Below, piece by piece: positions 2,682-64,000 of a stretch of 64,000 nt of DNA (within the stretch, counting starts at the first letter, position 1; each line of letters begins with the position of its first letter). The DNA comes from Escherichia coli (GTDB lineage Bacteria; Pseudomonadota; Gammaproteobacteria; Enterobacterales; Enterobacteriaceae): NCBI RefSeq assembly GCF_017348835.2, contig NZ_CP071375.1; one strand, given 5' to 3'. A program made the translations under genes and the position numbers. The notes below the pieces were generated by a model, which was not told where the DNA came from, searched no databases, and saw only the letters and a list, made by a program, of their open reading frames with translations.

Positions 2682-3554
2682 ATGGATGCACCGAGTACTA
2701 CACCGCATGACGCGGTATTTAAACAATTTTTAATGCATGCGGAGACGGCTCGCGACTTTCTGGAGATACATTTGCCAGTGGAATTACGCGAACTTTGTGA
2801 CCTCAACACGCTTCATTTAGAGTCGGGGAGTTTCATTGAAGAGAGCCTGAAAGGACACAGCACGGACGTGCTCTATTCCGTGCAAATGCAGGGCAATCCC
2901 GGTTATCTGCATGTTGTGATTGAACACCAAAGCAAGCCGGATAAGAAAATGGCCTTTCGCATGATGCGTTATTCTATAGCCGCCATGCATCGGCATCTGG
3001 AGGCGGATCACGACAAACTACCGCTGGTAGTGCCGATTCTCTTTTATCAGGGCGAGGCCACACCTTATCCGCTCTCAATGTGCTGGTTTGATATGTTTTA
3101 CTCTCCGGAGCTGGCGCGACGCGTCTATAACAGTCCTTTCCCGCTGGTGGATATCACCATCACACCGGATGACGAAATCATGCAACATCGGCGGATTGCG
3201 ATTCTCGAACTACTGCAAAAACATATTCGCCAGCGCGACTTAATGTTATTGCTGGAGCAACTGGTCACGCTGATTGACGAAGGGTACACTAGCGGAAGTC
3301 AGTTAGTTGCCATGCAAAACTATATGCTGCAACGCGGTCATACTGAACAAGCGGATTTGTTTTATGGTGTGCTGAGAGACAGGGAAACGGGAGGGGAGTC
3401 TATGATGACGCTGGCGCAGTGGTTTGAAGAGAGGGGAAGACAGGAGGAAAGGCAAGAATTCGTCCTGCGTCTTCTGAATAAAGGAATGTCTCGGGAAGAC
3501 GTTGCAGAGATGGCAAATTTACCCCTTGCCGAGATTGATAAGCTGATTAACTAA
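2682..3554 (+). CDS. rpnC: Rpn-family (YhgA-like, transposase_31 / PD-(D/E)XK) recombination-promoting nuclease
   Basis: 290-aa ORF beginning MDAPSTTPHDAVFKQFLMHAETARDFLEIHLP, typical of the YhgA/Rpn family N-terminus; sits between panD and panC as yadD/rpnC does in E. coli. Confidence 0.85.
   Translation: MDAPSTTPHDAVFKQFLMHAETARDFLEIHLPVELRELCDLNTLHLESGSFIEESLKGHSTDVLYSVQMQGNPGYLHVVIEHQSKPDKKMAFRMMRYSIAAMHRHLEADHDKLPLVVPILFYQGEATPYPLSMCWFDMFYSPELARRVYNSPFPLVDITITPDDEIMQHRRIAILELLQKHIRQRDLMLLLEQLVTLIDEGYTSGSQLVAMQNYMLQRGHTEQADLFYGVLRDRETGGESMMTLAQWFEERGRQEERQEFVLRLLNKGMSREDVAEMANLPLAEIDKLIN
3402..3554 (+). CDS. Candidate internally initiated small protein (RpnS-like C-terminal tail of RpnC), in frame with rpnC
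   Basis: In-frame ATGATG at 3402-3407 preceded by a strong purine-rich SD-like motif GGGAGGGGAG (3389-3398); would encode about 50 aa (MMTLAQWFEERGRQ...EIDKLIN). Translation is not demonstrated. Confidence 0.35.
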   Translation: MMTLAQWFEERGRQEERQEFVLRLLNKGMSREDVAEMANLPLAEIDKLIN

Positions 3555-3823
3555 GTTGTCTGCATCATCAGTTATAGCCAGATAATTGTTATTGTTAACT
3601 GACCAGATAATTAAGGGAACCTATGGAAATAAAGACACGGAGAGAAACCAGGCAGACGTTGGCGCAGTGGTTTGAAGAGAAGGGATTTCAGAAGGGATAT
3701 CAAGAGGAACTCCAGAAGGTAAGACAGGAATTCGCCCAGCGTTTTCTAAGTAAAGGGATGTCTCGGGAAGACGTTGCAGAGGTGACAACTTTACCTCTTA
3801 CAGAGATTGATAAGCTAATTAAC
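3408..3823 (+). repeat. Diverged tandem direct repeat (about 145 bp and 168 bp copies) covering the rpnC tail-coding segment
   Basis: Copy 1 at about 3408-3551 and copy 2 at about 3656-3823 share long identical stretches (for example atgtctcgggaagacgttgcagag, ggcgcagtggtttgaagaga); copy 2 carries an extra insertion of about 24-33 bp. Confidence 0.7.
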
Positions 3824-3832
3824 TCTAACTAA
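3623..3832 (+). CDS. Stand-alone small ORF homologous to the RpnC C-terminal tail (duplicated RpnS-like module)
   Basis: 69-aa ORF (…LAQWFEEKG…GMSREDVAEVTTLPLTEIDKLINSN) with an AAGGGA SD 6-8 nt upstream; clear protein and nucleotide similarity to the rpnC 3' end. Confidence 0.5.
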   Translation: MEIKTRRETRQTLAQWFEEKGFQKGYQEELQKVRQEFAQRFLSKGMSREDVAEVTTLPLTEIDKLINSN

Positions 3833-3927
3833 ATTGCCAGCGATATGAATAATCACTTACAGACGTCATCGCCATGACGTAGGGCAAATTAATAACTGGC
3901 GCCATCAGCCGTAGCGCCAGTTAAGTA

Positions 3928-4779
3928 TTACGCCAGTTCGACCATTTTGTTGTCGATCAGGCGGGCATCGCCAAGCCAGGCGGCTACCAGAATCACAGCT
4001 CGTTTGCTGGTTTCAGAGACTTCCAGCAACGTGTCGGCATCGCGAATCTGAATATCATCGGCGCGGAAGCCTTTTTCATTCAGTTCTTGCCCGGCAATAG
4101 CAATAATTTCATCGAGATCCCGTTCGCCAGCCTGCAATTTGTCGGCAATTGAACTTAAAACTTTGTACAGACCGGGCGCAATTTTGCGTTGTTCCGCTGT
4201 CAGATAACCGTTACGGGAACTCAGCGCCAGACCGTCTTTGGCGCGCATAATTGGCACACCGACAATCTCAATATCAAAGCCCATATCAGCAACCATTTTG
4301 CGGATCAGCGCCAGTTGCTGAAAATCTTTTTCACCGAAGCAGGCGATGTCCGGCTGGACCAGGTTGAACAGCTTGCTGACAATAGTCGAAACGCCGCGAA
4401 AATGGCCAGGACGGCTGGCACCTTCCAGCATGGTGGAAAGACCAGGAACGTCAACGTAAGTGTGGGTTTCAGTACCGTTCGGGTAGATCTCTTTTACCGA
4501 AGGGGCGAAAACTAAATCCACTTTACGTTTGTTTAGCTTTTCGCAGTCTTCCTGCAAGGTCCGTGGATAACGTGCCAGATCTTCCGGGCGGTCAAACTGC
4601 ATTGGGTTAACGAAAATACTGACGACGACCACATCGGCGCGGGCTTTGGCTTCGTCGACCAGCTTCATATGGCCATCGTGCAGGTTACCCATAGTAGGCA
4701 CCAGCGCCACGCGCTTGCCTTCCATACGCAGGCGGCGAATTTGCTGACGCAGCAGCGGCAGGGTTTCGATAATTAACAC
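3928..4779 (-). CDS. panC: Pantothenate synthetase (pantoate-beta-alanine ligase)
   Basis: 283-aa [40 protein letters not shown]..., carrying the HxGH motif. Confidence 0.95.
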
Positions 4780-4790
4780 AACGTGACTCC

Positions 4791-5582
4791 TTAATGGAAA
4801 CTGTGTTCTTCGCCCGGATATACGCCGGACTCCACTTCAGCCATATACTGCCGCACAGCTGCGCGGATGTCGCCCGTTTCAGCAAGGAAATTTTTGGCAA
4901 ATTTAGGGATATGACCGCCAGTAATACCGAAGGCGTCGTGCATGACGAGGATCTGCCCGTCGGTGACGTTACCTGCGCCGATACCGATAACCGGAATAGC
5001 CAGCGCCTCGGTAATACGTTTTGCCAGTTCAACTGGTACGCATTCCAGCACCAGCAACTGTGCACCAGCGGCTTCTAAGGCTAATGCATCGCTGAGCAGT
5101 TGATCGCCTGCCTCGCCACGCCCTTGTACTTTGTAGCCGCCGAAAATGTTCACTGACTGCGGCGTTAAACCTAAATGACCACATACCGGAACCGCGCGTT
5201 CAGTCAGCATCTGCACGGTTTCCACCAGCCATGCGCCACCTTCGATTTTGACCATATTGGCTCCGGCACGCATTACTGTGGCGGCATTTTCAAAGGCCTG
5301 TTCCGGCGTGGCATACGCCATAAACGGCAGGTCAGCCAACAACAGGCAGTTTGGCGCGCCACGACGTACGGCGGCAGTGTGGTAGGCGATATCAGCAACG
5401 GTAACTGGCAGGGTGGAGTCGTGCCCCTGAACCGTCATGCCCAGCGAGTCGCCTACCAGCATGACGTTAAGTCCTTCATCGGTAAAGAGTTTGGCGAAGC
5501 TATAGTCGTAAGCGGTGATGGTCGCGAAACGTTTTTTTTCCTGTTTGCATTTTTGCAATGAAGCAATGGTGGTCGGTTTCAT
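4791..5582 (-). CDS. panB: 3-methyl-2-oxobutanoate hydroxymethyltransferase
   Basis: 263-aa [36 protein letters not shown]...; adjacent to panC. Confidence 0.95.
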
Positions 5583-5661
5583 AACGTGTCCTGATGGCTA
5601 AAGTCAGATCTGTTCGCATTCTAACAGCCGAAATCAGGGGGGCAATGGTTTTTAGTGTGGG

Positions 5662-5695
5662 GAAAACGTTCGCACCAGAGCAGAACTCTGGTGCG
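5662..5695 (-). terminator. Rho-independent terminator at the 3' end of the yad fimbrial operon
   Basis: 10-bp perfect stem (5671-5680 and 5686-5695) with a 5-nt loop; on the minus strand it is followed by a T-tract. Confidence 0.5.
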
Positions 5696-5718
5696 ATGAG
5701 GAGGGAATAACGTTTTAC

Positions 5719-6840
5719 TTATTCGTAGGTAAAGGAGAAGGTCGCGTTACCGGAGAATGTTCCTGTTCCGATAGGTTTACCACTGCCATCGGGGACGAGT
5801 TGTGCTGTAAAAGGGAATGACAACAAGTTATTCGACCAGACAGGGAAGTTATAATCAATGGAAGCAACGCCATCTGGTTTTAATAACACTTTGCTATCAT
5901 TATAAGTTGAATTAACTCTTACAGCCACGCCTGTGGCAGAGCCAGTTGTTTTACCCACCAGATTTTTGTCAGTGGCTGCATTTGCAGCCGTCAGCTTAAC
6001 CGTAATCTTGCTGGCATAACAATACTCACCACGGATAGCAAAGGGAACTTCTCGGGTAAGACCATTTTTAACTTCGGATACGTAACTGTTACCTAACTGG
6101 ATTTCTGTGCCACTCACATTGCCTTTGTCCTGATCCAGGGTAATCATTGAACAGGTTGGTTGGTCAACGTAAAAGTGAACGGCACTATCCTGAACAGTAA
6201 AGTTTACCCATGCCTGGGTATTATCACCTATATACCAGGAAGCAATTTTTCCTGGCAAGGCATATCCTTCGAAAACCCCATTTTGAGGTTTAAATTCCGG
6301 CGTCCAGTAAAAACGAAAACGCAAATACCAGTCGTTGTCACTGTATTCATAAGCCCACTTGGTATCGCTGGCCGGTATGAAGTTATCTGCGCCGCTTTGT
6401 GCAGGTAAAACTAAATCAAGTTCATCTGCAGCACCACAGCTTATACATACCAATTCTACGGAGTAGACAATACCAGGAACTGTTGTTTTTAATAATGCGC
6501 CATTATCTTTCGAAACATAGGTTGATAACAAACCTGCATCCGCAGTGTTAAGAAAGTGTACTGAAGTAGTACCCCCTATATCGGACTTACATCCAATCGT
6601 CTCACCGTTCCTGTCCTTAAGTTTAATATTTGTATCATGAACCATGTCGCTTATTTCTTGTGGCGAAGATACCATTTGCGTTGTTATACTTTCAACCTCA
6701 GGGTTTATGACCATGTCATAAGTTCCCCCCGCCCATTTTTCTATATAACATTCCATCGCAGATGCAGACAAGGAGCACATAAAAAATAACAGTATTGCAC
6801 TGCATAACTGTCGTAACAGTTTATTGCCTTTCCTTTGCAT
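5719..6840 (-). CDS. yadC: Fimbrial tip adhesin-like protein (two-domain pilin)
   Basis: 373-aa ORF with a signal peptide; the C-terminal pilin domain ends ...GNATFSFTYE (conserved donor-strand acceptor terminus); last gene of the chaperone-usher operon. Confidence 0.85.
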   Translation of the reverse strand: MQRKGNKLLRQLCSAILLFFMCSLSASAMECYIEKWAGGTYDMVINPEVESITTQMVSSPQEISDMVHDTNIKLKDRNGETIGCKSDIGGTTSVHFLNTADAGLLSTYVSKDNGALLKTTVPGIVYSVELVCISCGAADELDLVLPAQSGADNFIPASDTKWAYEYSDNDWYLRFRFYWTPEFKPQNGVFEGYALPGKIASWYIGDNTQAWVNFTVQDSAVHFYVDQPTCSMITLDQDKGNVSGTEIQLGNSYVSEVKNGLTREVPFAIRGEYCYASKITVKLTAANAATDKNLVGKTTGSATGVAVRVNSTYNDSKVLLKPDGVASIDYNFPVWSNNLLSFPFTAQLVPDGSGKPIGTGTFSGNATFSFTYE

Positions 6841-6851
6841 AATTATCCTTA

Positions 6852-7442
6852 TTATTCGTAAGAAACATTAACAATAACCTGGCTTCTCACCATCCCCGAC
6901 TCGGGTGGGAGAGCATTATTCACCCGTTGCATACGGGAATAAAAGGTCCAGGTTGACGGAACAGCATTGCCTGGAGCGACAGAATAAATCGCCGTTGAGG
7001 AACCGTCCGTTCCCCGCACGTTAAAGGTCTGCTGATTCGGCTGTGCCGAAAATATTACAATGCCGACGTTTTTTGCCCCGGTAGCCTGCTGTTCATATTC
7101 ATTACTAAAAATTTGATTATTCACCTGCGCAAGCGAACCTGCCTGCGGCTGAAAATCTAATTTCATTTGCGACTGGGTCGTTTGAATATTATCGCAGGCG
7201 ACCACGTTAACATTAAACGTCTTGCCACCCGCATAATCCGTTGTTGGAGTTACGTTGTCGGCAAAATAGTCCAGGGTCACACTGCCGAGATCCACCACGC
7301 CATTATTACTCACTTCAACCTGACAGGTACTGGCGACAATCTGCGCGGTGAGATTCACATCCTGACCAGCATAGGCAAAAGGCGTTATGAGGGCTGTTGC
7401 CAGCCCCAAAAAACATACAAATTTATGATGCCTGCATAGCAT
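6852..7442 (-). CDS. yadK: Fimbrial subunit
   Basis: 196-aa ORF with a signal peptide and a pilin-like C-terminus (...VNVSYE). Confidence 0.85.
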   Translation of the reverse strand: MLCRHHKFVCFLGLATALITPFAYAGQDVNLTAQIVASTCQVEVSNNGVVDLGSVTLDYFADNVTPTTDYAGGKTFNVNVVACDNIQTTQSQMKLDFQPQAGSLAQVNNQIFSNEYEQQATGAKNVGIVIFSAQPNQQTFNVRGTDGSSTAIYSVAPGNAVPSTWTFYSRMQRVNNALPPESGMVRSQVIVNVSYE

Positions 7443-7462
7443 TCTAATATCCTTATCTGCTA

Positions 7463-8074
7463 TTACTGATAAGTGATAGTGAAGGTGGTGGGAGAAAGAA
7501 ACTCGCCCGGTAATACATCATTAACCGTTCTTCCATCGGCGATAATCATCCGCGCACTTAAATCGTAATCATAAGGCTGTGTTGTACTGGCATTAGAAAG
7601 ATCAACCGTGATGACGTTTCGTTGAACACAACTGAGTTGCTGACTGCCGCTTCCCTCGGGGGTCGTAGTCGTCCATACTTCGACCGCTGCTCTGCTTGAA
7701 CCACCAGCGCCGGAGGAAATTGAATTTGCAAAGCCGGCAGTGTTAGACTGACCGCCAGCGCAACCCGTACCAGGCCTGGGCGCTAAAACGAGTTGAGCAC
7801 TCTTCCCTGGAAGACCGGCACAATCACTGAAGCGGATTTTGAATGGTTGCACTTTGCTTTTTGCCGCTAACTCAGAAATATAAACATTGCCCAGGGCAAC
7901 AGTATCTGTCGCTTTATTGCTGGAATCCAGAACCTGAGCACTACAGGTACCCATAGTCAGGTTACTGTTTACGGTTAAAGATGCAGAAGTAGTACTCGCA
8001 TAGGCGAGATTTGAATTAAAGCTTGCACCTACGGCAACAGTAGCAATCAGTGTGGCGATGACTTTTAATTTCAT
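7463..8074 (-). CDS. yadL: Fimbrial subunit
   Basis: 203-aa ORF with signal peptide MKLKVIATLIATVAVGASFNSNLAYA and C-terminus ...TFTITYQ. Confidence 0.85.
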   Translation of the reverse strand: MKLKVIATLIATVAVGASFNSNLAYASTTSASLTVNSNLTMGTCSAQVLDSSNKATDTVALGNVYISELAAKSKVQPFKIRFSDCAGLPGKSAQLVLAPRPGTGCAGGQSNTAGFANSISSGAGGSSRAAVEVWTTTTPEGSGSQQLSCVQRNVITVDLSNASTTQPYDYDLSARMIIADGRTVNDVLPGEFLSPTTFTITYQ

Positions 8075-8088
8075 GGTGGCTGTCCCTG

Positions 8089-8652
8089 TTATTCGTAGGT
8101 GAAGTTAAAGGTGGCTTTTGCCTGAAACGCACCGGTGCGTCCCGCTCCCGCCGTGGTTTCGCGCAGTGCAACGGTCAGAGGCACACCGTTAGTTTTCTCA
8201 TCGGAAGACCATTCAAATTTGTCAGTATTATTGGGCGTGAAGAAAGCCGAGTCTGCGGCATCTCTACGCTTAATACCCATACCCACACCAGCAGCGCCAG
8301 AGCTTGCTTCATTGACAATCAACTTGCCTGAAACAGACGTTCCTGTAAGTGTGGTAAAAATTTTTGAGTAACCATCGCTGCAATCTTTAGCCTTTAATTT
8401 AAAGTTGGCTTGCGCTGCAACATCACCAGTGACAACTTTGTCCAGGCCAACATCAGGAATGGTCAGGCTGTATTCATCGTTACCGCTACTGGTCACCACG
8501 GGGCCACCATCTTGTTCAATGGTTATCGTACAGGTGGTGGCGAGTACAGTGGCCGTAAAATCGACTTTGAGATCTGTTGCAGAGCCAACTGCCGGTAAAC
8601 CCAGGCCTATTAACGCGGATGTTAGTAGTATCCTTTTCATAGAATTTTCCAT
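8089..8652 (-). CDS. yadM: Fimbrial subunit
   Basis: 187-aa ORF with a signal peptide and C-terminus ...KATFNFTYE. Confidence 0.85.
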   Translation of the reverse strand: MENSMKRILLTSALIGLGLPAVGSATDLKVDFTATVLATTCTITIEQDGGPVVTSSGNDEYSLTIPDVGLDKVVTGDVAAQANFKLKAKDCSDGYSKIFTTLTGTSVSGKLIVNEASSGAAGVGMGIKRRDAADSAFFTPNNTDKFEWSSDEKTNGVPLTVALRETTAGAGRTGAFQAKATFNFTYE

Positions 8653-8653
8653 A

Positions 8654-11254
8654 TTAATGTTTTGCTACCTGACAGGTAAGATTGTTAAGTAATAAGGTGT
8701 TAGTGCTTCCCAGAGTTTGTGGCTGGGCCGGGAACTGGTAATGCAACTTACAGTCCACGGTTTGGTTGTTTTCAAACCAGCGCACGGTTAATTCCCCACT
8801 GTCGTTAATACCACGCACAAATGCCTGACCGCCCTGGCCCATACTGCCGATCATGACTTCATCCTGGTAAACCTCCGCAGCAAACGGAATCGGTTTGTCA
8901 GTGTTGGAGGTAATATTCAGCACGGCAGAACGCCCTTCGTCAGTTTCAAAACGGGTCAAAACAACGGACCCGCTACGTGGTACGGTGGTGGCGCTGGTAC
9001 TTTTCAGTTCTACGTCGTTTTCCAGCGACTCAATGTTCAGGCCTACGCGGTTTTCACGGTATGGGCTGACAGCGGACGTTACGGCATATCCCCAGCGATC
9101 GATTTCGTTATTACTGTTATTGACTCGTGCGCCTTTAGCGCCTGGGGCATTGACTAACACCAGCGTATCGTTACTGCTGAAACTGTTATTGGTAAATGTC
9201 AGACCACCGCTGTGTAACACAAAGCCGCCATCGGTTGAGATGGAGTACTGTTGGCTATTATCAGAAGAGGCAGAGGCCGAAGCGGAAATACCGCCTAACC
9301 CAGATTCATAGTTGAGATAACCGCCAACAGAAGCTAGATCGCCGTAATTTTTATCCATGCTATAACCTGTGTTGACGCTATAGTTCACCTGGCCGCTTTC
9401 ATTGCTACCGGAACTGTTCATATTCAACTGGTGTGAACCATCAAAATCGGTATTGAGCTGAGTATTTAAATTACGGAAACCGGAAGTCTTGCGTTTGCCA
9501 CCGAAAATATTCTCAAAAGGCACGCTAACGCTGACATACATTGCGTCATCTTTATCGCCATCTTCATTCCAGCTACGTTGCAGGTTAACGCTGAAGCTAC
9601 CCCACGAAACGCTTTTACTGTAACCGACGTTATATTCAGTCCTGCTATTGTTCGCCGCCCAGTAGTCCGTCCAGCTACCGGAAATAAACAGCGAACCGTA
9701 ATCGACATAGGCGATGTTCAACGGTTGGTTGATGCTGACGGTAAACTGGTTTTTCATGCGTGAGTATGTCTGCATGGTGTTTTTGTCTTCATCGGCAGAC
9801 ATATGTTTCGCGTCGTCAATGAGGACTAACGCGTCATGCAGGCCCAGGTAATCCTGGGTGGAATAGCGGTAAGCCGCCAGGTTAAATGATGTTCCGGTAT
9901 CCTGGAAAAGTTTGTTCCAGGTTACGCGATAACTTTGCCCCTGGTAGGTTTTATCATCCGGAATTTCAGCGCGGGAATGGGTAACGTCCATCGCAAAAGC
10001 ACCGATGCTGGTGTTAATACCCACACCTAACAGTCCGGCAAGATAGTTGTTGTCGGTGAACTGAATGCCGGTGTAACCCGTGAAGAGGTTATTCAGACCA
10101 TAGTAATAAGAGGCTTGCCCCATATTAGGTTCGGATCGCAGGCTGTCATCAATAACTTTACCGGCACTGAAATCCCAACGACCCACGCCAGGACGCTGCA
10201 TCTGCACGACGGAGGAGAAGGGCTGCGTAAAGGAACGTTTGGAACCATCCGCTTCTTCAATGGTAATAACCAGTTCGCTACCAAATCCGGAAGGGCTGAT
10301 GTCATCAATAACAAACTCACCTGGCGGAACGGTGGTTTCATAGATTTTATAGCCGTTCTGCGTCACGGTAACTTTGGCGTTAGAGTTTGCCACACCACGA
10401 ATGGTCGGGGCGTAGCTGGCTAACGCAGAAGGCAGCATACGGCTGTCACTGTACAGGCGAACACCCCGGACGTTGACAGAGTCAAACGTTTCACCGGTGG
10501 TGTAGGCATCACCCATGATTATCTGTGAACGTATTGCCGGAATATCACGCTGTAGGTAACGATCCTGGAAATCGAAATCACTGCCGCTATCTGTTGTCCA
10601 GTTATAGTTGCCGCGCGCACGGAAATGCCAGGCACCTAAATTGATACCTGAGTTAAATGCGCCATAGACACTATCGTTATTGTTGTCTTCTGAACTTGTG
10701 TGATACGCGTTCAAGGAATACGACAGCGTGGCAGCGTTAATTCCCGACTCCCATAAGGAAGGATCAACGTAGCCGCCATAGCTCTTCAGGACATAGGCCT
10801 GAGGAATGGTCAGATCGAGATACTGGTCACTGCCATCAAATTGAACTTCGGCCTGATCGTATGACTTTGCCAGATCAAGACAGTCTTCTTCTTCACCTTC
10901 TCTGGCGAGTAGGGTCACAAGCTGTTCGGATTGTTTAATGTGTAACTGCGCCAGGTTTTTGCGGGTAATACAGGCCGCCGCGCTGTTTTCACCAATATCC
11001 ACAAACGGAATTTCTAAACTGGAGGTGGCCTGACCGTTTACAAACACGCGGACATTATAAAGACCCGGCGGTGTCGGGTTACCTTGAGCATAGCGTTTAA
11101 CATCAATGGTTGATGAGCCAGTTCCCATTAAGAAGGAACTGTCATATTCCACCGTGTCTGCCGCAGCACCGTTGCTGCTATAAAGGAGGGCGCAACAGGC
11201 CGCAAGTAGCGTTTTTTTCGGTGTACGACTTTTGTGATGAGTAAACTGGTACAA
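8654..11254 (-). CDS. htrE: Outer-membrane fimbrial usher
   Basis: 866-aa ORF; size and composition typical of PapC/FimD ushers; flanked by chaperone and pilin genes. Confidence 0.9.
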   Translation of the reverse strand: MYQFTHHKSRTPKKTLLAACCALLYSSNGAAADTVEYDSSFLMGTGSSTIDVKRYAQGNPTPPGLYNVRVFVNGQATSSLEIPFVDIGENSAAACITRKNLAQLHIKQSEQLVTLLAREGEEEDCLDLAKSYDQAEVQFDGSDQYLDLTIPQAYVLKSYGGYVDPSLWESGINAATLSYSLNAYHTSSEDNNNDSVYGAFNSGINLGAWHFRARGNYNWTTDSGSDFDFQDRYLQRDIPAIRSQIIMGDAYTTGETFDSVNVRGVRLYSDSRMLPSALASYAPTIRGVANSNAKVTVTQNGYKIYETTVPPGEFVIDDISPSGFGSELVITIEEADGSKRSFTQPFSSVVQMQRPGVGRWDFSAGKVIDDSLRSEPNMGQASYYYGLNNLFTGYTGIQFTDNNYLAGLLGVGINTSIGAFAMDVTHSRAEIPDDKTYQGQSYRVTWNKLFQDTGTSFNLAAYRYSTQDYLGLHDALVLIDDAKHMSADEDKNTMQTYSRMKNQFTVSINQPLNIAYVDYGSLFISGSWTDYWAANNSRTEYNVGYSKSVSWGSFSVNLQRSWNEDGDKDDAMYVSVSVPFENIFGGKRKTSGFRNLNTQLNTDFDGSHQLNMNSSGSNESGQVNYSVNTGYSMDKNYGDLASVGGYLNYESGLGGISASASASSDNSQQYSISTDGGFVLHSGGLTFTNNSFSSNDTLVLVNAPGAKGARVNNSNNEIDRWGYAVTSAVSPYRENRVGLNIESLENDVELKSTSATTVPRSGSVVLTRFETDEGRSAVLNITSNTDKPIPFAAEVYQDEVMIGSMGQGGQAFVRGINDSGELTVRWFENNQTVDCKLHYQFPAQPQTLGSTNTLLLNNLTCQVAKH

Positions 11255-11294
11255 GGTTGCATTCCTGGCGATGTTAAAAGAATCCGTTTATTTT

Positions 11295-12020
11295 TTAGAA
11301 TGTTGCTGAACCATCGATATTGCCGCCAAAGTCATTTATGGCCTGGAACACGACTTTGCCCGATGAAACGCCACCTGACAGACCCGTTACGCTAAAGCTT
11401 GCCTGACTGAACGGCGCGATCATGCTGGAATCGACTTTGTAGCTTTTGCCGCCGCTTTCCAGTTTGACGTCATTGAATGACACGTAATAAGGCGTTGGGT
11501 TATTCGCCTGCAATTGCGTGTTGTTCAACTTCCAGGTGATTTTTGCTGGCGCTTCAGCAGGTTCACCCTGCAAACCGCTCGGGCGATAAAAAAGTTTGAT
11601 GCGCGTGCGGAAAGCCAGTTGTAGTAAGTTTTTGTCAGCCTGGGCATCTTTCGGCTTTGGCGGCACTTCCAGCACGTTAAACCAGTAGACACTTTCCCGG
11701 TCTTTAGGTAGGGCTGTTGCACCGGTATACATTACTTTTACGGTTTGCCCGCGTTTTGGCTCCACGCGTGAAACGGGGGGCGTAGAGGTAAAGGGCACTT
11801 TGATCTGGCTGGGGTCGACATTGTCATTGCCGGTGTCCAACCAGTTCTGAATCAGTAAGGGGCGATTCCCTTTATTTTCCAGACGAACGTTAACATCTTT
11901 TTTATCAGCGTTATAAATGATACGAGTCCCGGAAATAATAATGTCAGCGAATGCTGGCGTACTGGCTAACAGAGTACTCACAAATAATGCACTAACCGTT
12001 TTTTTAACCAAGGGAAACAT
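11295..12020 (-). CDS. ecpD: Periplasmic fimbrial chaperone (PapD-like)
   Basis: ORF 11295-12095; the likely start is the internal Met giving MFPLVKKTVSALFVSTLLASTPAFA (signal peptide). The exact start is uncertain. Also known as yadV. Confidence 0.85.
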   Translation of the reverse strand: MFPLVKKTVSALFVSTLLASTPAFADIIISGTRIIYNADKKDVNVRLENKGNRPLLIQNWLDTGNDNVDPSQIKVPFTSTPPVSRVEPKRGQTVKVMYTGATALPKDRESVYWFNVLEVPPKPKDAQADKNLLQLAFRTRIKLFYRPSGLQGEPAEAPAKITWKLNNTQLQANNPTPYYVSFNDVKLESGGKSYKVDSSMIAPFSQASFSVTGLSGGVSSGKVVFQAINDFGGNIDGSATF

Positions 12021-12106
12021 AAGCACTCCTTGCTGTCTGTGTTGAGATAAAATTAGCGAAAATAAGGTTTGCCTGATGACAAACCCTATACTCAATTCGC
12101 CATCAA

Positions 12107-12700
12107 TTACTGATAAGTAATGGTGTACAGTGCGTTAGTGGTAACGTGACCAGCAGTAACAGCCTGGCTGTTCGGTGCTTTAACGTAAGATGCGTTAAAC
12201 ACATACTGACCGTTGCCTTGTGCGTCTAATGTCAATTCCTGGATTTCAGAAGAATTGTTCATATGGACCTGCTTAATTTCAGCAGCGCCAGCTTTGTTTT
12301 TCATGTTATGAACAGCAATGTTCACGTTCTGAGCCGGTTGAATACCGTTAATCGTGATATTGGTATTGTTGTTCAGGGTGCCGCTGGTGTTCGCGTAGCT
12401 TGCAGAACCCATGGTCAACTGGGCAGTTGTTTTACCCGGTTCGCAATCCACAGAAATCATGAACTCTTTCGGCAGTAAACCAACAGCAGCAGCGCTTACT
12501 TCAGCAAAGTTATCAGTAACATTTGCAGTATCCAGGGTAACCACGCCATCAGTGCTGATGCCGTGCATACCGGTATCTACCACACCCACTTTACAGGTAC
12601 CGGACTGTACCATACCGTTAAAGTCGATATGACCACCATCTACAGCCAGGGCGGAACCAGAAGCCATAACCAGAACGGCTGCGAGAAGTGCTTTTTTCAT
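12107..12700 (-). CDS. yadN: Major fimbrial subunit (pilin)
   Basis: ORF 12107-12709; the likely start is MKKALLAAVLVMASGSALA (signal peptide); C-terminus ...TNALYTITYQ; first gene of the operon. Confidence 0.85.
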   Translation of the reverse strand: MKKALLAAVLVMASGSALAVDGGHIDFNGMVQSGTCKVGVVDTGMHGISTDGVVTLDTANVTDNFAEVSAAAVGLLPKEFMISVDCEPGKTTAQLTMGSASYANTSGTLNNNTNITINGIQPAQNVNIAVHNMKNKAGAAEIKQVHMNNSSEIQELTLDAQGNGQYVFNASYVKAPNSQAVTAGHVTTNALYTITYQ

Positions 12701-12709
12701 TACATGCAT

Positions 12710-13042
12710 CCTTACAAAAATTATATGAAATTAATATTGCGAGCGGATATTACTCAAAGTTTTTGGAGGATGTAATAGGGGTGAGTTATCACGGATGTGA
12801 ATATATTTATGTGGTGTATTGAATTGTTGTTATTTTAGGTTGTTTAAACAAAAAATGCCTAATTTATTTGCATGAAGTGCTATTTCATGAATGAATTAAA
12901 AAAAACTAAAATGTAAATTAAGTATATTTAATATGTAAGGGGGGAAGTGAGGAGTAAGATAAGAAAATAATTTTTTCTTGGTGGATGAAATAGCCGTATC
13001 ATTTTGTATTCCTCTCGTCAAGAAAATAAAATAATACAGCTA
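12710..13042 (-). promoter_or_regulatory. AT-rich upstream control region of the yad fimbrial operon (probable H-NS-silenced promoter)
   Basis: 333-bp intergenic region with very high A+T content and long A/T runs, immediately upstream of yadN on the minus strand. Confidence 0.5.
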
Positions 13043-13522
13043 TTACCAGATGGCAGGTTGTGGTACTGCTAGCGAAGTGAGTATTTCACGTAATGTCTCC
13101 CCATCAGGAAACACGAGTTCCGGGGCAATCTCAAACAGCGGCCACAGCATAAAGCCGCGATTCTTCATATCATAATGCGGAACGGTGAGTCGTTCGGTAT
13201 TAATGGTTTCATTACCAAACAACATGATATCAAGATCGAGTGTGCGCGGTCCCCAGCGTTCAGCTTTACGGACGCGACCTTGCTGCAATTCAATACGCTG
13301 AGTGTGATTGAGTAACTCTTCAGGTGCAAGAGAGGTTTTCAGCGCCACGGCTGCGTTTAAGTAATCGGGTTGATCTTGCGGCCCCAGCGGTGGGGTGCGG
13401 TAAAACGAAGAAACGGCAAGAATGTGGCTTTCAGGGATATCGCCTAATGCTTTCAAGGCAGCATTGACCTGCTCCAGCGGAGAGGCCAGATTGCTGCCTA
13501 TGGCAATATACGCCACTGTCAT
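13043..13522 (-). CDS. folK: 2-amino-4-hydroxy-6-hydroxymethyldihydropteridine pyrophosphokinase
   Basis: 159-aa [37 protein letters not shown]... Confidence 0.95.
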
Positions 13523-14916
13523 GCGGTACCCTCACGACGTGGTGCGCGTTTGCGTGGACGACGAGTACGACGACGCGGTGACGGTTCTTCATCCAGCTCG
13601 TTGAGCATCCCTTTTTGGTCTGGTGGCGCGGAAACCTGGAACTCACCCCACCATTTCACCAGACGCTGCAATTCAGCGTTACGTTCAACTTCAGCTCGCA
13701 AGGCCAACAGGTCATAAGCCGCACGGAACTTAGGATGCTCCAGCAGTTTCCATGCGCGTTTACCCTGACGTCGGGACATACGCAATTGCAACTGCCAGAT
13801 ATCGCGGGTTAACGTCGTCAGGCGTTTCGGGATTGCCAGTGAACGGCAGGCTTCGTCCAGCACGTCGTTCATCGCCAGCGCGAAAGCGTCGTGATAGGTC
13901 AGGCCGCTTTCCTGGGCGATCTTCTGTGCCGTCTCCAGCAGTGGGTACCAGAACATGGCGGCAAACAGGAACGCCGGGTTCACGCGCATATCGTTATGGA
14001 TACGCGTATCGGTATTCTTCAGCACCTGTTCAATGATCCGCTCCATCGGGCTGTCGCCATTTTCCGTGAAGTAGCGGGTAATGGTCGGGAACAGCGGCTG
14101 GAACAGATGATATTCACACAGCAGCTTATAGGTTTCGTAACCGTAGCCCGCTTGTAGCAGTTTAAGCGATTCTTCAAACAGGCGTGCTGGTGGGATATCG
14201 TTCAGCAGGGTAGCGAGGCGAGGGATCGGTTCTGCGGTTTCCGGGCTGATGCGCATACCCAATTTGGCGGCAAAACGTACCGCGCGCAGCATACGTACCG
14301 GATCTTCACGGTAGCGCGTTTCCGGGTTACCAATCAGACGGATAACACCGTCCTTCAGATCCTTCATACCGCCAACGTAATCACGGACGGTAAAATCCGC
14401 TACGCTGTAATACAGGCTGTTGATAGTAAAATCGCGGCGCTGGGCGTCTTCTTCGATGGAGCCGAAAATGTTGTCGCGCAGCAACATGCCGTTTTGCCCG
14501 CGTTGGGAAGTCGTGCGGTCGCTGACGTTACCTTCGTGGTGTCCACGGAAGGTCGCAACTTCGATAATCTCCGGGCCAAACATCACATGAGCCAGACGGA
14601 AACGGCGACCCACCAGGCGGCAGTTACGGAACAGTTTGCGCACCTGCTCAGGCGTGGCGTTAGTGGTTACGTCAAAATCTTTCGGCTTTTTGCCGAGTAA
14701 CAGGTCGCGCACGCCGCCGCCAACCAGCCAGGCTTCGTATCCCGCTTTATTGAGCCTGTACATTACCTTCAGGGCATTTTCACTGATATCTTTGCGGGAA
14801 ATAGCATGCTGCTCACGCGGGATCACCGTCACCTGTGGACGGGCGACTGCCTGTTCAGCCTCGCTTTCCTCGCGGCTTAGCACCTTGCGGCAAAAATTAG
14901 CGACTCGGGTAAAAAT
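13519..14916 (-). CDS. pcnB: Poly(A) polymerase I
   Basis: The ORF track gives 472 aa from an upstream ATG (14937); the established PcnB start is a non-canonical AUU giving a 465-aa protein (…[17 protein letters not shown]…). Overlaps the folK start by 4 nt. Confidence 0.9.
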
Positions 14917-63567: not shown

Positions 63568-64000
63568 ATGAGTCTGAATTTCCTTGATTTTGAACAGCCG
63601 ATTGCAGAGCTGGAAGCGAAAATCGATTCTCTGACTGCGGTTAGCCGTCAGGATGAGAAACTGGATATTAACATCGATGAAGAAGTGCATCGTCTGCGTG
63701 AAAAAAGCGTAGAACTGACGCGTAAAATCTTCGCCGATCTCGGTGCATGGCAGATTGCGCAACTGGCACGCCATCCACAGCGTCCTTATACCCTGGATTA
63801 CGTTCGCCTGGCATTTGATGAATTTGACGAACTGGCTGGCGACCGCGCGTATGCAGACGATAAAGCTATCGTCGGTGGTATCGCCCGTCTCGATGGTCGT
63901 CCGGTGATGATCATTGGTCATCAAAAAGGTCGTGAAACCAAAGAAAAAATTCGCCGTAACTTTGGTATGCCAGCGCCAGAAGGTTACCGCAAAGCACTGC
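63568..64000 (+). CDS. accA: Acetyl-CoA carboxylase carboxyltransferase alpha subunit, 5' part (partial)
   Basis: ATG at 63568 with AGGA SD upstream; translation [47 protein letters not shown]...; runs off the window end. Confidence 0.9.

Follow-up and report, generated by a model that had tools for sequence, protein, structure and literature searches.

The DNA analysed was a 64,000 bp window of Escherichia coli (RefSeq assembly GCF_017348835.2, contig NZ_CP071375.1), identical to the pig strain PE164 at 64,000 of 64,000 bases. Between the core genes panB and folK it carries a chaperone-usher fimbrial operon of the Yad type. Gene coordinates were those of the RefSeq annotation of PE164 mapped onto the window. 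The ORF (open reading frame) list of the window gave seven intact ORFs at 5719-12700, all in one direction on the minus strand, in the order yadN, chaperone, usher, yadM, yadL, yadK and yadC. Site and order were the same as in E. coli K-12 and in genes Z0146-Z0152 of enterohemorrhagic E. coli (EHEC). The genes and their neighbors, in the direction of transcription, were as follows (aa, amino acids).

13043..13522, minus strand: folK, flanking core gene
12107..12700, minus strand: yadN-like major pilin, 197 aa; Pfam Fimbrial 7e-9
11295..12020, minus strand: yadV/ecpD-like periplasmic chaperone, PapD-like, 241 aa; PapD_N 2e-44, PapD_C 2e-20
8654..11254, minus strand: htrE-like outer-membrane usher, 866 aa, TTG start; Usher 3e-157
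8089..8640, minus strand: yadM-like minor pilin, 183 aa; Pfam Fimbrial 3e-16
7463..8074, minus strand: yadL-like minor pilin, 203 aa; NCBIfam StaE/YadL models 9e-90
6852..7442, minus strand: yadK-like minor pilin, 196 aa; Pfam Fimbrial 1e-9
5719..6840, minus strand: yadC-like two-domain tip adhesin, 373 aa; Pfam Fimbrial at residues 228-372
4791..5582, minus strand: panB, flanking core gene

A preliminary description of this DNA had listed seven co-directional genes for a major pilin, a chaperone, an usher, three minor pilins and an adhesin. All seven ORFs were intact, and Pfam and NCBIfam agreed with these assignments. The usher contained all three of its Pfam domains (PapC_N 1e-38, Usher 3e-157, PapC_C 2e-15). 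The Fimbrial family PF00419 was found in four of the five pilin-like proteins, namely YadN, YadM, YadK and the C-terminal half of YadC. Three proteins scored above their NCBIfam cutoffs: the usher (NF007337, 1550 bits, cutoff 830), the chaperone (NF007398, 419 bits, cutoff 285) and YadK (NF011794, 270 bits, cutoff 132). The top models for YadN (StaA, 164 bits), YadM (StaD, 157 bits) and YadL (StaE, 300 bits, 9e-90) fell below cutoffs of 230, 228 and 414 bits, respectively. The chaperone is 241 aa long, 266 aa being the maximal ORF only. The most likely start of yadN is the ATG at 12700, which has AAGGA 8 nt upstream. Shine-Dalgarno-like AAGGA or AGGA sequences were present ahead of the genes. 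The gene spacers were 11-40 nt, with the exception of 86 nt 3' of yadN. The domains expected of a gamma4-class chaperone-usher operon were all found: an usher, a two-domain chaperone, and Fimbrial-family pilins with a two-domain adhesin. Yad is defined by locus position and usher clade (Wurpel 2013), and the panB-folK site, the gene order and the scores above the HtrE and YadV equivalog cutoffs agreed with that definition. The region is a functional-looking gamma4-class fimbrial operon, and from its genes alone assembly of a fimbria is predicted.

By sequence, this is a rare allele of class II Yad (the EHEC and Escherichia albertii type) and not the K-12 version. The operon of K-12 and uropathogenic E. 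coli (UPEC), yadN-yadV(ecpD)-htrE-yadMLKC (b0135-b0141), shares the panB-folK site, the gene order and number and the gamma4 architecture. The preliminary description had taken the window to hold that operon with a variant yadC. Instead, all seven proteins were only 30-62% identical to those of K-12 MG1655 (YadC 30%, YadK 41%, YadL 44%, YadN 46%, YadM 51%, usher ~60-61%, chaperone 62%), and nucleotide identity was 58-65%. BLASTP aligned only residues 108-372 of YadC with K-12 YadC, at 26% identity, and the first ~100 residues could not be aligned. The upstream region is comparably AT-rich in K-12 (26.6% GC compared to 28.1% here).

The Yad operon of EHEC O157:H7 (Z0146-Z0152 / ECs0139-ECs0145, 'locus 2') shares the site, the seven-gene order and the haplotype class. 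Over the whole 7.9 kb, nucleotide identity to O157:H7 and O145:H28 was 87.5-88.8%. All seven proteins were full length and 71-96% identical to those of O145 and O157, which places the operon in class II. The usher was 93-94% identical to both and the upstream region 94-97% identical to the EHEC class. Against the O145:H28 allele the chaperone was 94%, YadK 96%, YadN 89-90% and YadC ~71% identical; the YadN figure covers strain 2824 as well. The lectin domain of YadC differed from O157 and O145 with a nonsynonymous divergence (dN) of 0.27-0.30 and a synonymous divergence (dS) above 1. The EHEC-class operon (O157 Sakai allele) forms thin flexible fimbriae when expressed (PMC7098969). Under some conditions its native promoter drives transcription, which proceeds in three units, and the operon contributes to expression of the locus of enterocyte effacement (LEE) and to late gut colonization in mice (PMC11287998).

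Under a stricter definition of Yad, HtrE must share 80% identity or more with the usher of EC958 (PMC13245861). Compared with K-12 HtrE and with the usher of a six-gene class, the usher in the window reached 60% and 58% identity, respectively; on these figures it lies outside that definition. Phylogroup E, a carrier of the class found here, was scored as 0% Yad-positive (PMC13245861). With presence of Yad judged by a cutoff of 80% identity to the usher of UPEC, EHEC-class strains are labelled 'Yad-negative' (PMC13245861) despite an intact, deeply divergent operon at the same site. The data on H-NS, xylose binding and bloodstream infection concern the K-12/UPEC class and not the class of the window (PMC13245861), and conclusions on H-NS control, xylose binding and virulence are not transferable to the EHEC class without test.

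Salmonella Sta (staA-G) was also considered. Sta and Yad were placed in one usher clade and at the same locus by Wurpel et al. (PMC3559732), and the best NCBIfam models for YadN, YadM and YadL are named after StaA, StaD and StaE. The likeness to Sta rests on the literature and on these model names. A scan of genome contigs for exact peptide words gave 11 loci, none from Salmonella.

YadC has a predicted layout of a signal peptide at residues ~1-28, a receptor-binding (lectin) domain at ~29-222 and a pilin domain at 223-373. An AF2 model built from a 23-sequence alignment had two beta-rich domains and a mean predicted local distance difference test score (pLDDT) of 79.5, with most values between 80 and 95 at residues 31-220. 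The top Foldseek matches in PDB were FimH, LpfD, CfaE, CupB6 and PapG (E 6e-9 to 4e-6, 10-13% identity). FimH, LpfD, CupB6 and PapG follow the same predicted plan of an N-terminal beta-sandwich receptor-binding domain and a C-terminal incomplete-Ig pilin domain; the Foldseek probability was 1.0, yet whole-chain TM-scores were 0.23-0.45. The lectin domains of F17-G, AtfE and Abp gave weak fold matches to the N-terminal half. A sequence search of PDB with YadC gave no match at E up to 1, leaving no solved structure of a sequence relative. The model supports YadC as a two-domain adhesin, as had been described. We infer that residues ~29-222 bind the receptor. This domain is unlike that of every studied YadC, and the ligand is not inferable from the model.

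YadC is shorter than its K-12 counterpart (373 compared to 412 aa), as had been noted at first; the extra 39 residues of K-12 are insertions in both domains. Among 5.8 billion proteins there were 24 YadC-related clusters, all 367-376 aa where complete, so that 373 aa is the full length of the family and no truncation or strain-specific deletion is indicated. The clusters included proteins from E. albertii (70%), cryptic Escherichia species (70% and 51%) and E. fergusonii (54%). YadC was 91% identical to that of the chicken strain 2824. The protein scored 35 bits against the YadC-type equivalog NF007269 (cutoff 473), outside the K-12 YadC adhesin family, and its best model was StkG (77 bits, cutoff 329). 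A 314-aa metagenome protein in ENA combines the Pfam domains Fimbrial and Trans_reg_C, and half of it aligns with YadC at 60% identity; this protein is possibly a fusion, or else an artefact of assembly.

Usher genes were counted in 5,426 complete E. coli genomes. An usher at least 99% identical to that of the window was found in two genomes, PE164 and F2_81, both from pigs. A further 418 genomes had an usher at 80-95%, giving 420 of 5,426 (7.7%) for class II. K-12 htrE was matched at 90% or more in 3,298 genomes and at 80-90% in 485. A third class (type strain 1368KP) had a matching usher (at least 80%) in 188 genomes, and its protein was 80% identical to the usher of the window. The lectin-coding half of yadC (6150-6840) was present at 80% nucleotide identity or more in only four of the complete genomes. 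In complete genomes the rare lectin domain came from pigs and a chicken only. The nearest non-identical operon was that of chicken strain 2824 (92.9% overall). The exact YadC protein was found on at least 84 contigs, all labelled E. coli. The receptor-binding domain, a rare allele from pig isolates (diarrhea, blood), may recognize a different ligand.

The class structure was derived from an usher identity matrix and a neighbor-joining tree. The tree had two deep clades, ~60% identical to each other. The first contained the window, strain 2824, O145, O157, Escherichia sp. E1V33, E. albertii and 1368KP, with a Pseudocitrobacter metagenome-assembled genome (MAG) as the nearest outgroup. The second contained K-12 and the six-gene class. 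The distance between the clades was about that of either clade to the Citrobacter and Pseudocitrobacter operons. The usher of the window was 93-96% identical to those of O157, O145 and 2824, 88% to E. albertii, 80% to 1368KP, 70% to the Pseudocitrobacter MAG and 60% to K-12. The E. coli usher classes, only 58-80% identical, lie further apart than the window class does from the Pseudocitrobacter copy at this site.

The operon differed in composition from its surroundings, as the preliminary description had reported. Its GC content was 47.0% compared to a mean of 52.4% (standard deviation 2.7) in the 47 other genes of the window (Mann-Whitney p = 2e-6). GC content at third codon positions (GC3) was 46.3% compared to 55.5% (p = 3e-5), and an index like the codon adaptation index (CAI), derived from neighboring genes, was 0.64 compared to 0.70 (p = 0.02). 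The compositional extreme was yadC (42.2% GC, 38.2% GC3). The region between yadN and folK had been described as 333 bp of AT-rich DNA. Its AT-richness was clear, and its length proved to be 342 bp (12701-13042). At 28.1% GC it was the lowest of the 13 intergenic regions in the window that are 150 bp or longer, and all 342-nt windows with a GC content of 33% or less in the 64 kb fell at this spacer. The strong AT-richness that is a mark of H-NS-silenced xenogeneic DNA, above all at the promoter, was found. Two of the checks first proposed, GC content and codon usage against the flanks and alignment of YadC with K-12, each gave clear differences.

Such figures could reflect a recently acquired foreign island from outside Escherichia, with the low GC content being that of the donor. 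GC and GC3 below those of the neighboring genes, proteins only 30-62% identical to K-12, and an usher closer to the Pseudocitrobacter MAG (70%) than to K-12 (60%) would all agree with this. However, the same class occupies the same site in E. albertii, in the cryptic Escherichia sp. E1V33 and in ~420 E. coli genomes. Yad/Sta-like operons also lie between panB and folK in Pseudocitrobacter and Citrobacter. Because the site is occupied in E. albertii and other genera, it is ancient rather than an island. The borders of the operon were free of mobility genes, integrases, transposases, tRNAs and border repeats. The operon is thus neither absent from close relatives nor flanked by mobility genes, the two marks by which foreign origin would be recognized. 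The boundaries are divergence gradients within panB and folK and not sharp junctions, and the low GC content is common to all haplotype classes, K-12 included. A foreign island is therefore very unlikely, and the original wording 'horizontally acquired' is misleading for what appears to be homologous exchange of alleles. The low GC content is better attributed to several very old haplotype classes swapped by homologous recombination via conserved flanks.

Within class II, divergence greatly exceeded that of the core. On the right-hand side, 24 kb of core flank was 98.6% identical to O145:H28, compared to 88.8% for the operon. Against class II strains, dS was 0.04-0.06 in pcnB, 0.05-0.26 in panC, 0.07-0.51 (also given as 0.35-0.51) in panB and 0.32-0.46 in the usher. 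It reached 1.05-1.8 in yadC, compared to only 0.09-0.26 against strain 2824. Nucleotide identity of panB to K-12 (~4800-5600) was 88-91% compared to 96-99% further out. On the folK side it was 67-93% at 13001-13400 and 99% from 13401. Diversity in folK was 0.08-0.09 at 13100-13300 compared to ~0.01 in pcnB, and sliding identity returned to 98-100% beyond panB and the 3' part of folK. The haplotype was a mosaic. It matched strain 2824 at 97-100% in two segments, 4800-5400 and 8800-9400, and every available allele at only 83-94% over 9400-12600. No donor for 9400-12600 was found among complete E. coli genomes, the nearest being ~90% identical. The ratio dN/dS was 0.03-0.25 in every operon gene, indicating purifying selection. 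As dS is extreme, dN/dS is low and the divergence spills into panB and folK, old alleles appear to have been exchanged by homologous recombination, including across species. The divergence data point away from both a recent foreign insertion and relaxed constraint.

Relaxed constraint would be expected of a decaying cryptic relic that is never expressed. Silence of the K-12 yad operon in the laboratory (PMC3559732, PMC13245861) and the broken state of some class II alleles (A30 and an E. albertii locus) are in line with such a relic. In the window, however, the seven ORFs are full length for their family and each gene has the low dN/dS given above. Invariant cysteines and C-terminal motifs are retained in the proteins, and the Shine-Dalgarno-like sequences remain ahead of the genes. 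The EHEC allele, moreover, is expressed and has phenotypes (PMC11287998). A relic is most improbable.

Variation among class II alleles was not evenly spread. Nucleotide diversity (pi) peaked in the lectin domain of YadC (up to 0.35), the most variable part of the operon as had been expected, and in yadL at 7500-7950 (up to 0.29). The divergence of yadC and yadL could accordingly stem mainly from strong diversifying (positive) selection by host receptors, immunity or phage rather than from allele age and recombination. The peaks fall exactly in the lectin domain and in mid-yadL, and dN was 0.27-0.31 in the lectin domain compared to 0.15-0.17 in the pilin domain. Yet dS was saturated (1.2-1.8) in the same segments, whole-domain dN/dS was 0.17-0.22, and panB and folK also had a 5-10 times excess of synonymous divergence. 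Diversifying selection as the main cause is rather doubtful, and site-wise positive selection may contribute as well. We suggest only tentatively that the panB-folK locus is a long-lived trans-species balanced polymorphism, with at least four classes in E. coli that would be shuffled between Escherichia species by homologous recombination via panB and folK, and in which the rare YadC lectin domain confers a distinct host-linked receptor specificity. The locus is highly polymorphic. It clearly illustrates how old alleles of an adhesin operon can go with linked divergence in nearby housekeeping genes, and can serve in work on recombination and balancing selection in E. coli. The operon itself is ordinary in kind. 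Only the adhesin sequence is unusual, and a specialist in fimbriae would find no surprise in any of this.

A specific origin from E. albertii was suspected as YadN fell in a 90% cluster mostly of E. albertii proteins. It was rejected, YadN being 90-92% identical and no closer than to O145, and the nucleotide identity of the operon, only 80-87%, also opposed it. Separately, the operon of E1V33 was 92-98% identical to that of O145:H28. The flanks of E1V33 were 98-100% identical to E. coli in panD-rpnC and 88-94% in pcnB-gluQ, making this locus a mosaic across the species boundary.

The putative control elements of the operon were as follows.

12701..13042, minus strand: AT-rich regulatory region from the folK stop to the yadN start, 342 bp, 28.1% GC
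12832..12861, minus strand: candidate sigma-70 promoter TAGGCA-18-TAAAAT, from a promoter scan and by consensus match only
12046..12089, minus strand: 12-bp hairpin with a U-rich tail 3' of the yadN stop, a probable attenuator judging by fold and sequence
5661..5696, minus strand: probable operon terminator, a perfect 11-bp inverted repeat with a 5-nt loop (stem-loop 5670-5696), then ACGUUUUCC
5645..5618, minus strand: panB promoter-like site TTGCCC-16-TAGAAT from the promoter scan, beyond the terminator hairpin

The upstream region was 94-98% identical and alignable among class II alleles, with conserved blocks common to E. albertii and class III. Unusual conservation was suspected from its 97-98% identity to three alleles. 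This was not upheld, diversity across eight class II alleles being 0.03-0.05, like most of the operon. O157:H7 and GF3-3 lack 61 bp of the folK-proximal part, which the window, strain 2824, O145 and E1V33 have. TAGGCA-18-TAAAAT is offered as a lead only to a possible yadN promoter. Its -10 hexamer was retained or bettered in other alleles (TAGAAT in O157, TATAAT in GF3-3). An Rfam search of 5000-14000 at a permissive threshold gave no match, so no known riboswitch or small RNA (sRNA) was found in the control region.

From its AT content alone (72% A+T), the region would be predicted to be repressed by H-NS. In CFT073, repression of the yad promoter by H-NS exceeds 100-fold; K-12 yad is likewise repressed, and the demonstrated repression is limited to that class (PMC13245861). 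The words 'H-NS-silenced' and 'cryptic' in the preliminary description thus went further than the evidence, H-NS repression having been shown for the K-12/CFT073 class only (PMC13245861) and the EHEC class being expressed (PMC11287998).

A fim-like invertible switch and a pap-like GATC switch were both considered and rejected. Positions 12701-13042 contained no GATC site of the pap (Dam/Lrp) type and no homopolymer longer than 8. Inverted repeats upstream of yadN of the kind expected for a fimS-type switch were only weak (70-82% complementarity), and no recombinase gene was found nearby. Yad is stated to be not phase-variable (PMC13245861), with which the absence of these features agrees.

The 98-nt spacer with the hairpin after yadN had a predicted RNA fold of -24.1 kcal/mol (z -2.7). 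As in other pilus operons, this hairpin could attenuate read-through into the chaperone gene, which would agree with the several transcription units described in EHEC. The terminator hairpin lies 23 nt after the yadC stop and had a fold of -24.4 kcal/mol (z -6.9).

Taken together, the operon is very probably an intact gamma4 chaperone-usher operon carrying a rare class II Yad allele, which works by the standard pathway and belongs to a set of old classes swapped by recombination. The mechanism set out here follows the established chaperone-usher pathway, this allele being known from its sequence. Transcription would start in the AT-rich 342 bp upstream of yadN. H-NS probably binds and represses this region, as in the K-12/CFT073 class, and environmental cues would relieve the repression. 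The hairpin after yadN would lower read-through and give an excess of major pilin. Sec would export the subunits, the YadV-like chaperone would fold them, and donor-strand exchange at the HtrE-like usher would polymerize them. The YadC adhesin would be assembled first, followed by the minor pilins YadK, YadL and YadM and then by the YadN shaft. The strong hairpin after yadC would end the transcript.

Four observations weigh against this account. The upstream region could not be aligned with its K-12 counterpart. The candidate promoter matched the consensus at 9 of 12 positions, and the scan gave fewer promoter-like sites than shuffled sequence. The H-NS high-affinity motif TCGATAAATT did not occur in the intergenic region even with 2 mismatches allowed, and was dropped as support for H-NS. 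Lastly, confidence in the pilin domain of YadC and in the interdomain geometry was moderate, with a pLDDT of 54-87 after residue 220 and a predicted TM-score (pTM) of 0.65.

Several other alleles at the Yad site were recorded. PS1Phumofeces1 has a six-gene haplotype with one minor pilin fewer and a 416-aa adhesin, its operon lying at 3363-9888 of its locus. Its usher was 75% identical to that of K-12 and 58% to that of the window. The class II operon of E. coli A30 (baboon) is decaying: yadL and yadM are frameshifted and yadN has an internal stop. One class II locus of E. albertii is also decaying, its usher gene carrying an insertion sequence (IS) element and its yadC being split.

Outside the operon, the rpnC-panC spacer (3555-3927) was 373 bp compared to 73 bp in K-12. 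The extra ~300 bp holds a 59-codon partial ORF at 3653-3832 on the plus strand, ending in ...SKGMSREDVAEVTTLPLTEIDKLINSN*, which is annotated in RefSeq as an incomplete hypothetical protein. We take it to resemble the C-terminal tail of an Rpn-family nuclease. O145, 2824 and GF3-3 have the extra segment; K-12 and Escherichia sp. E1V33 lack it. Rfam matches at gathering score elsewhere in the window were t44 RNA (44707-44793) and CssrA sRNA (45632-45741) around rpsB and the HtrA 5' untranslated region (5'UTR) thermometer (36505-36550) upstream of degP.

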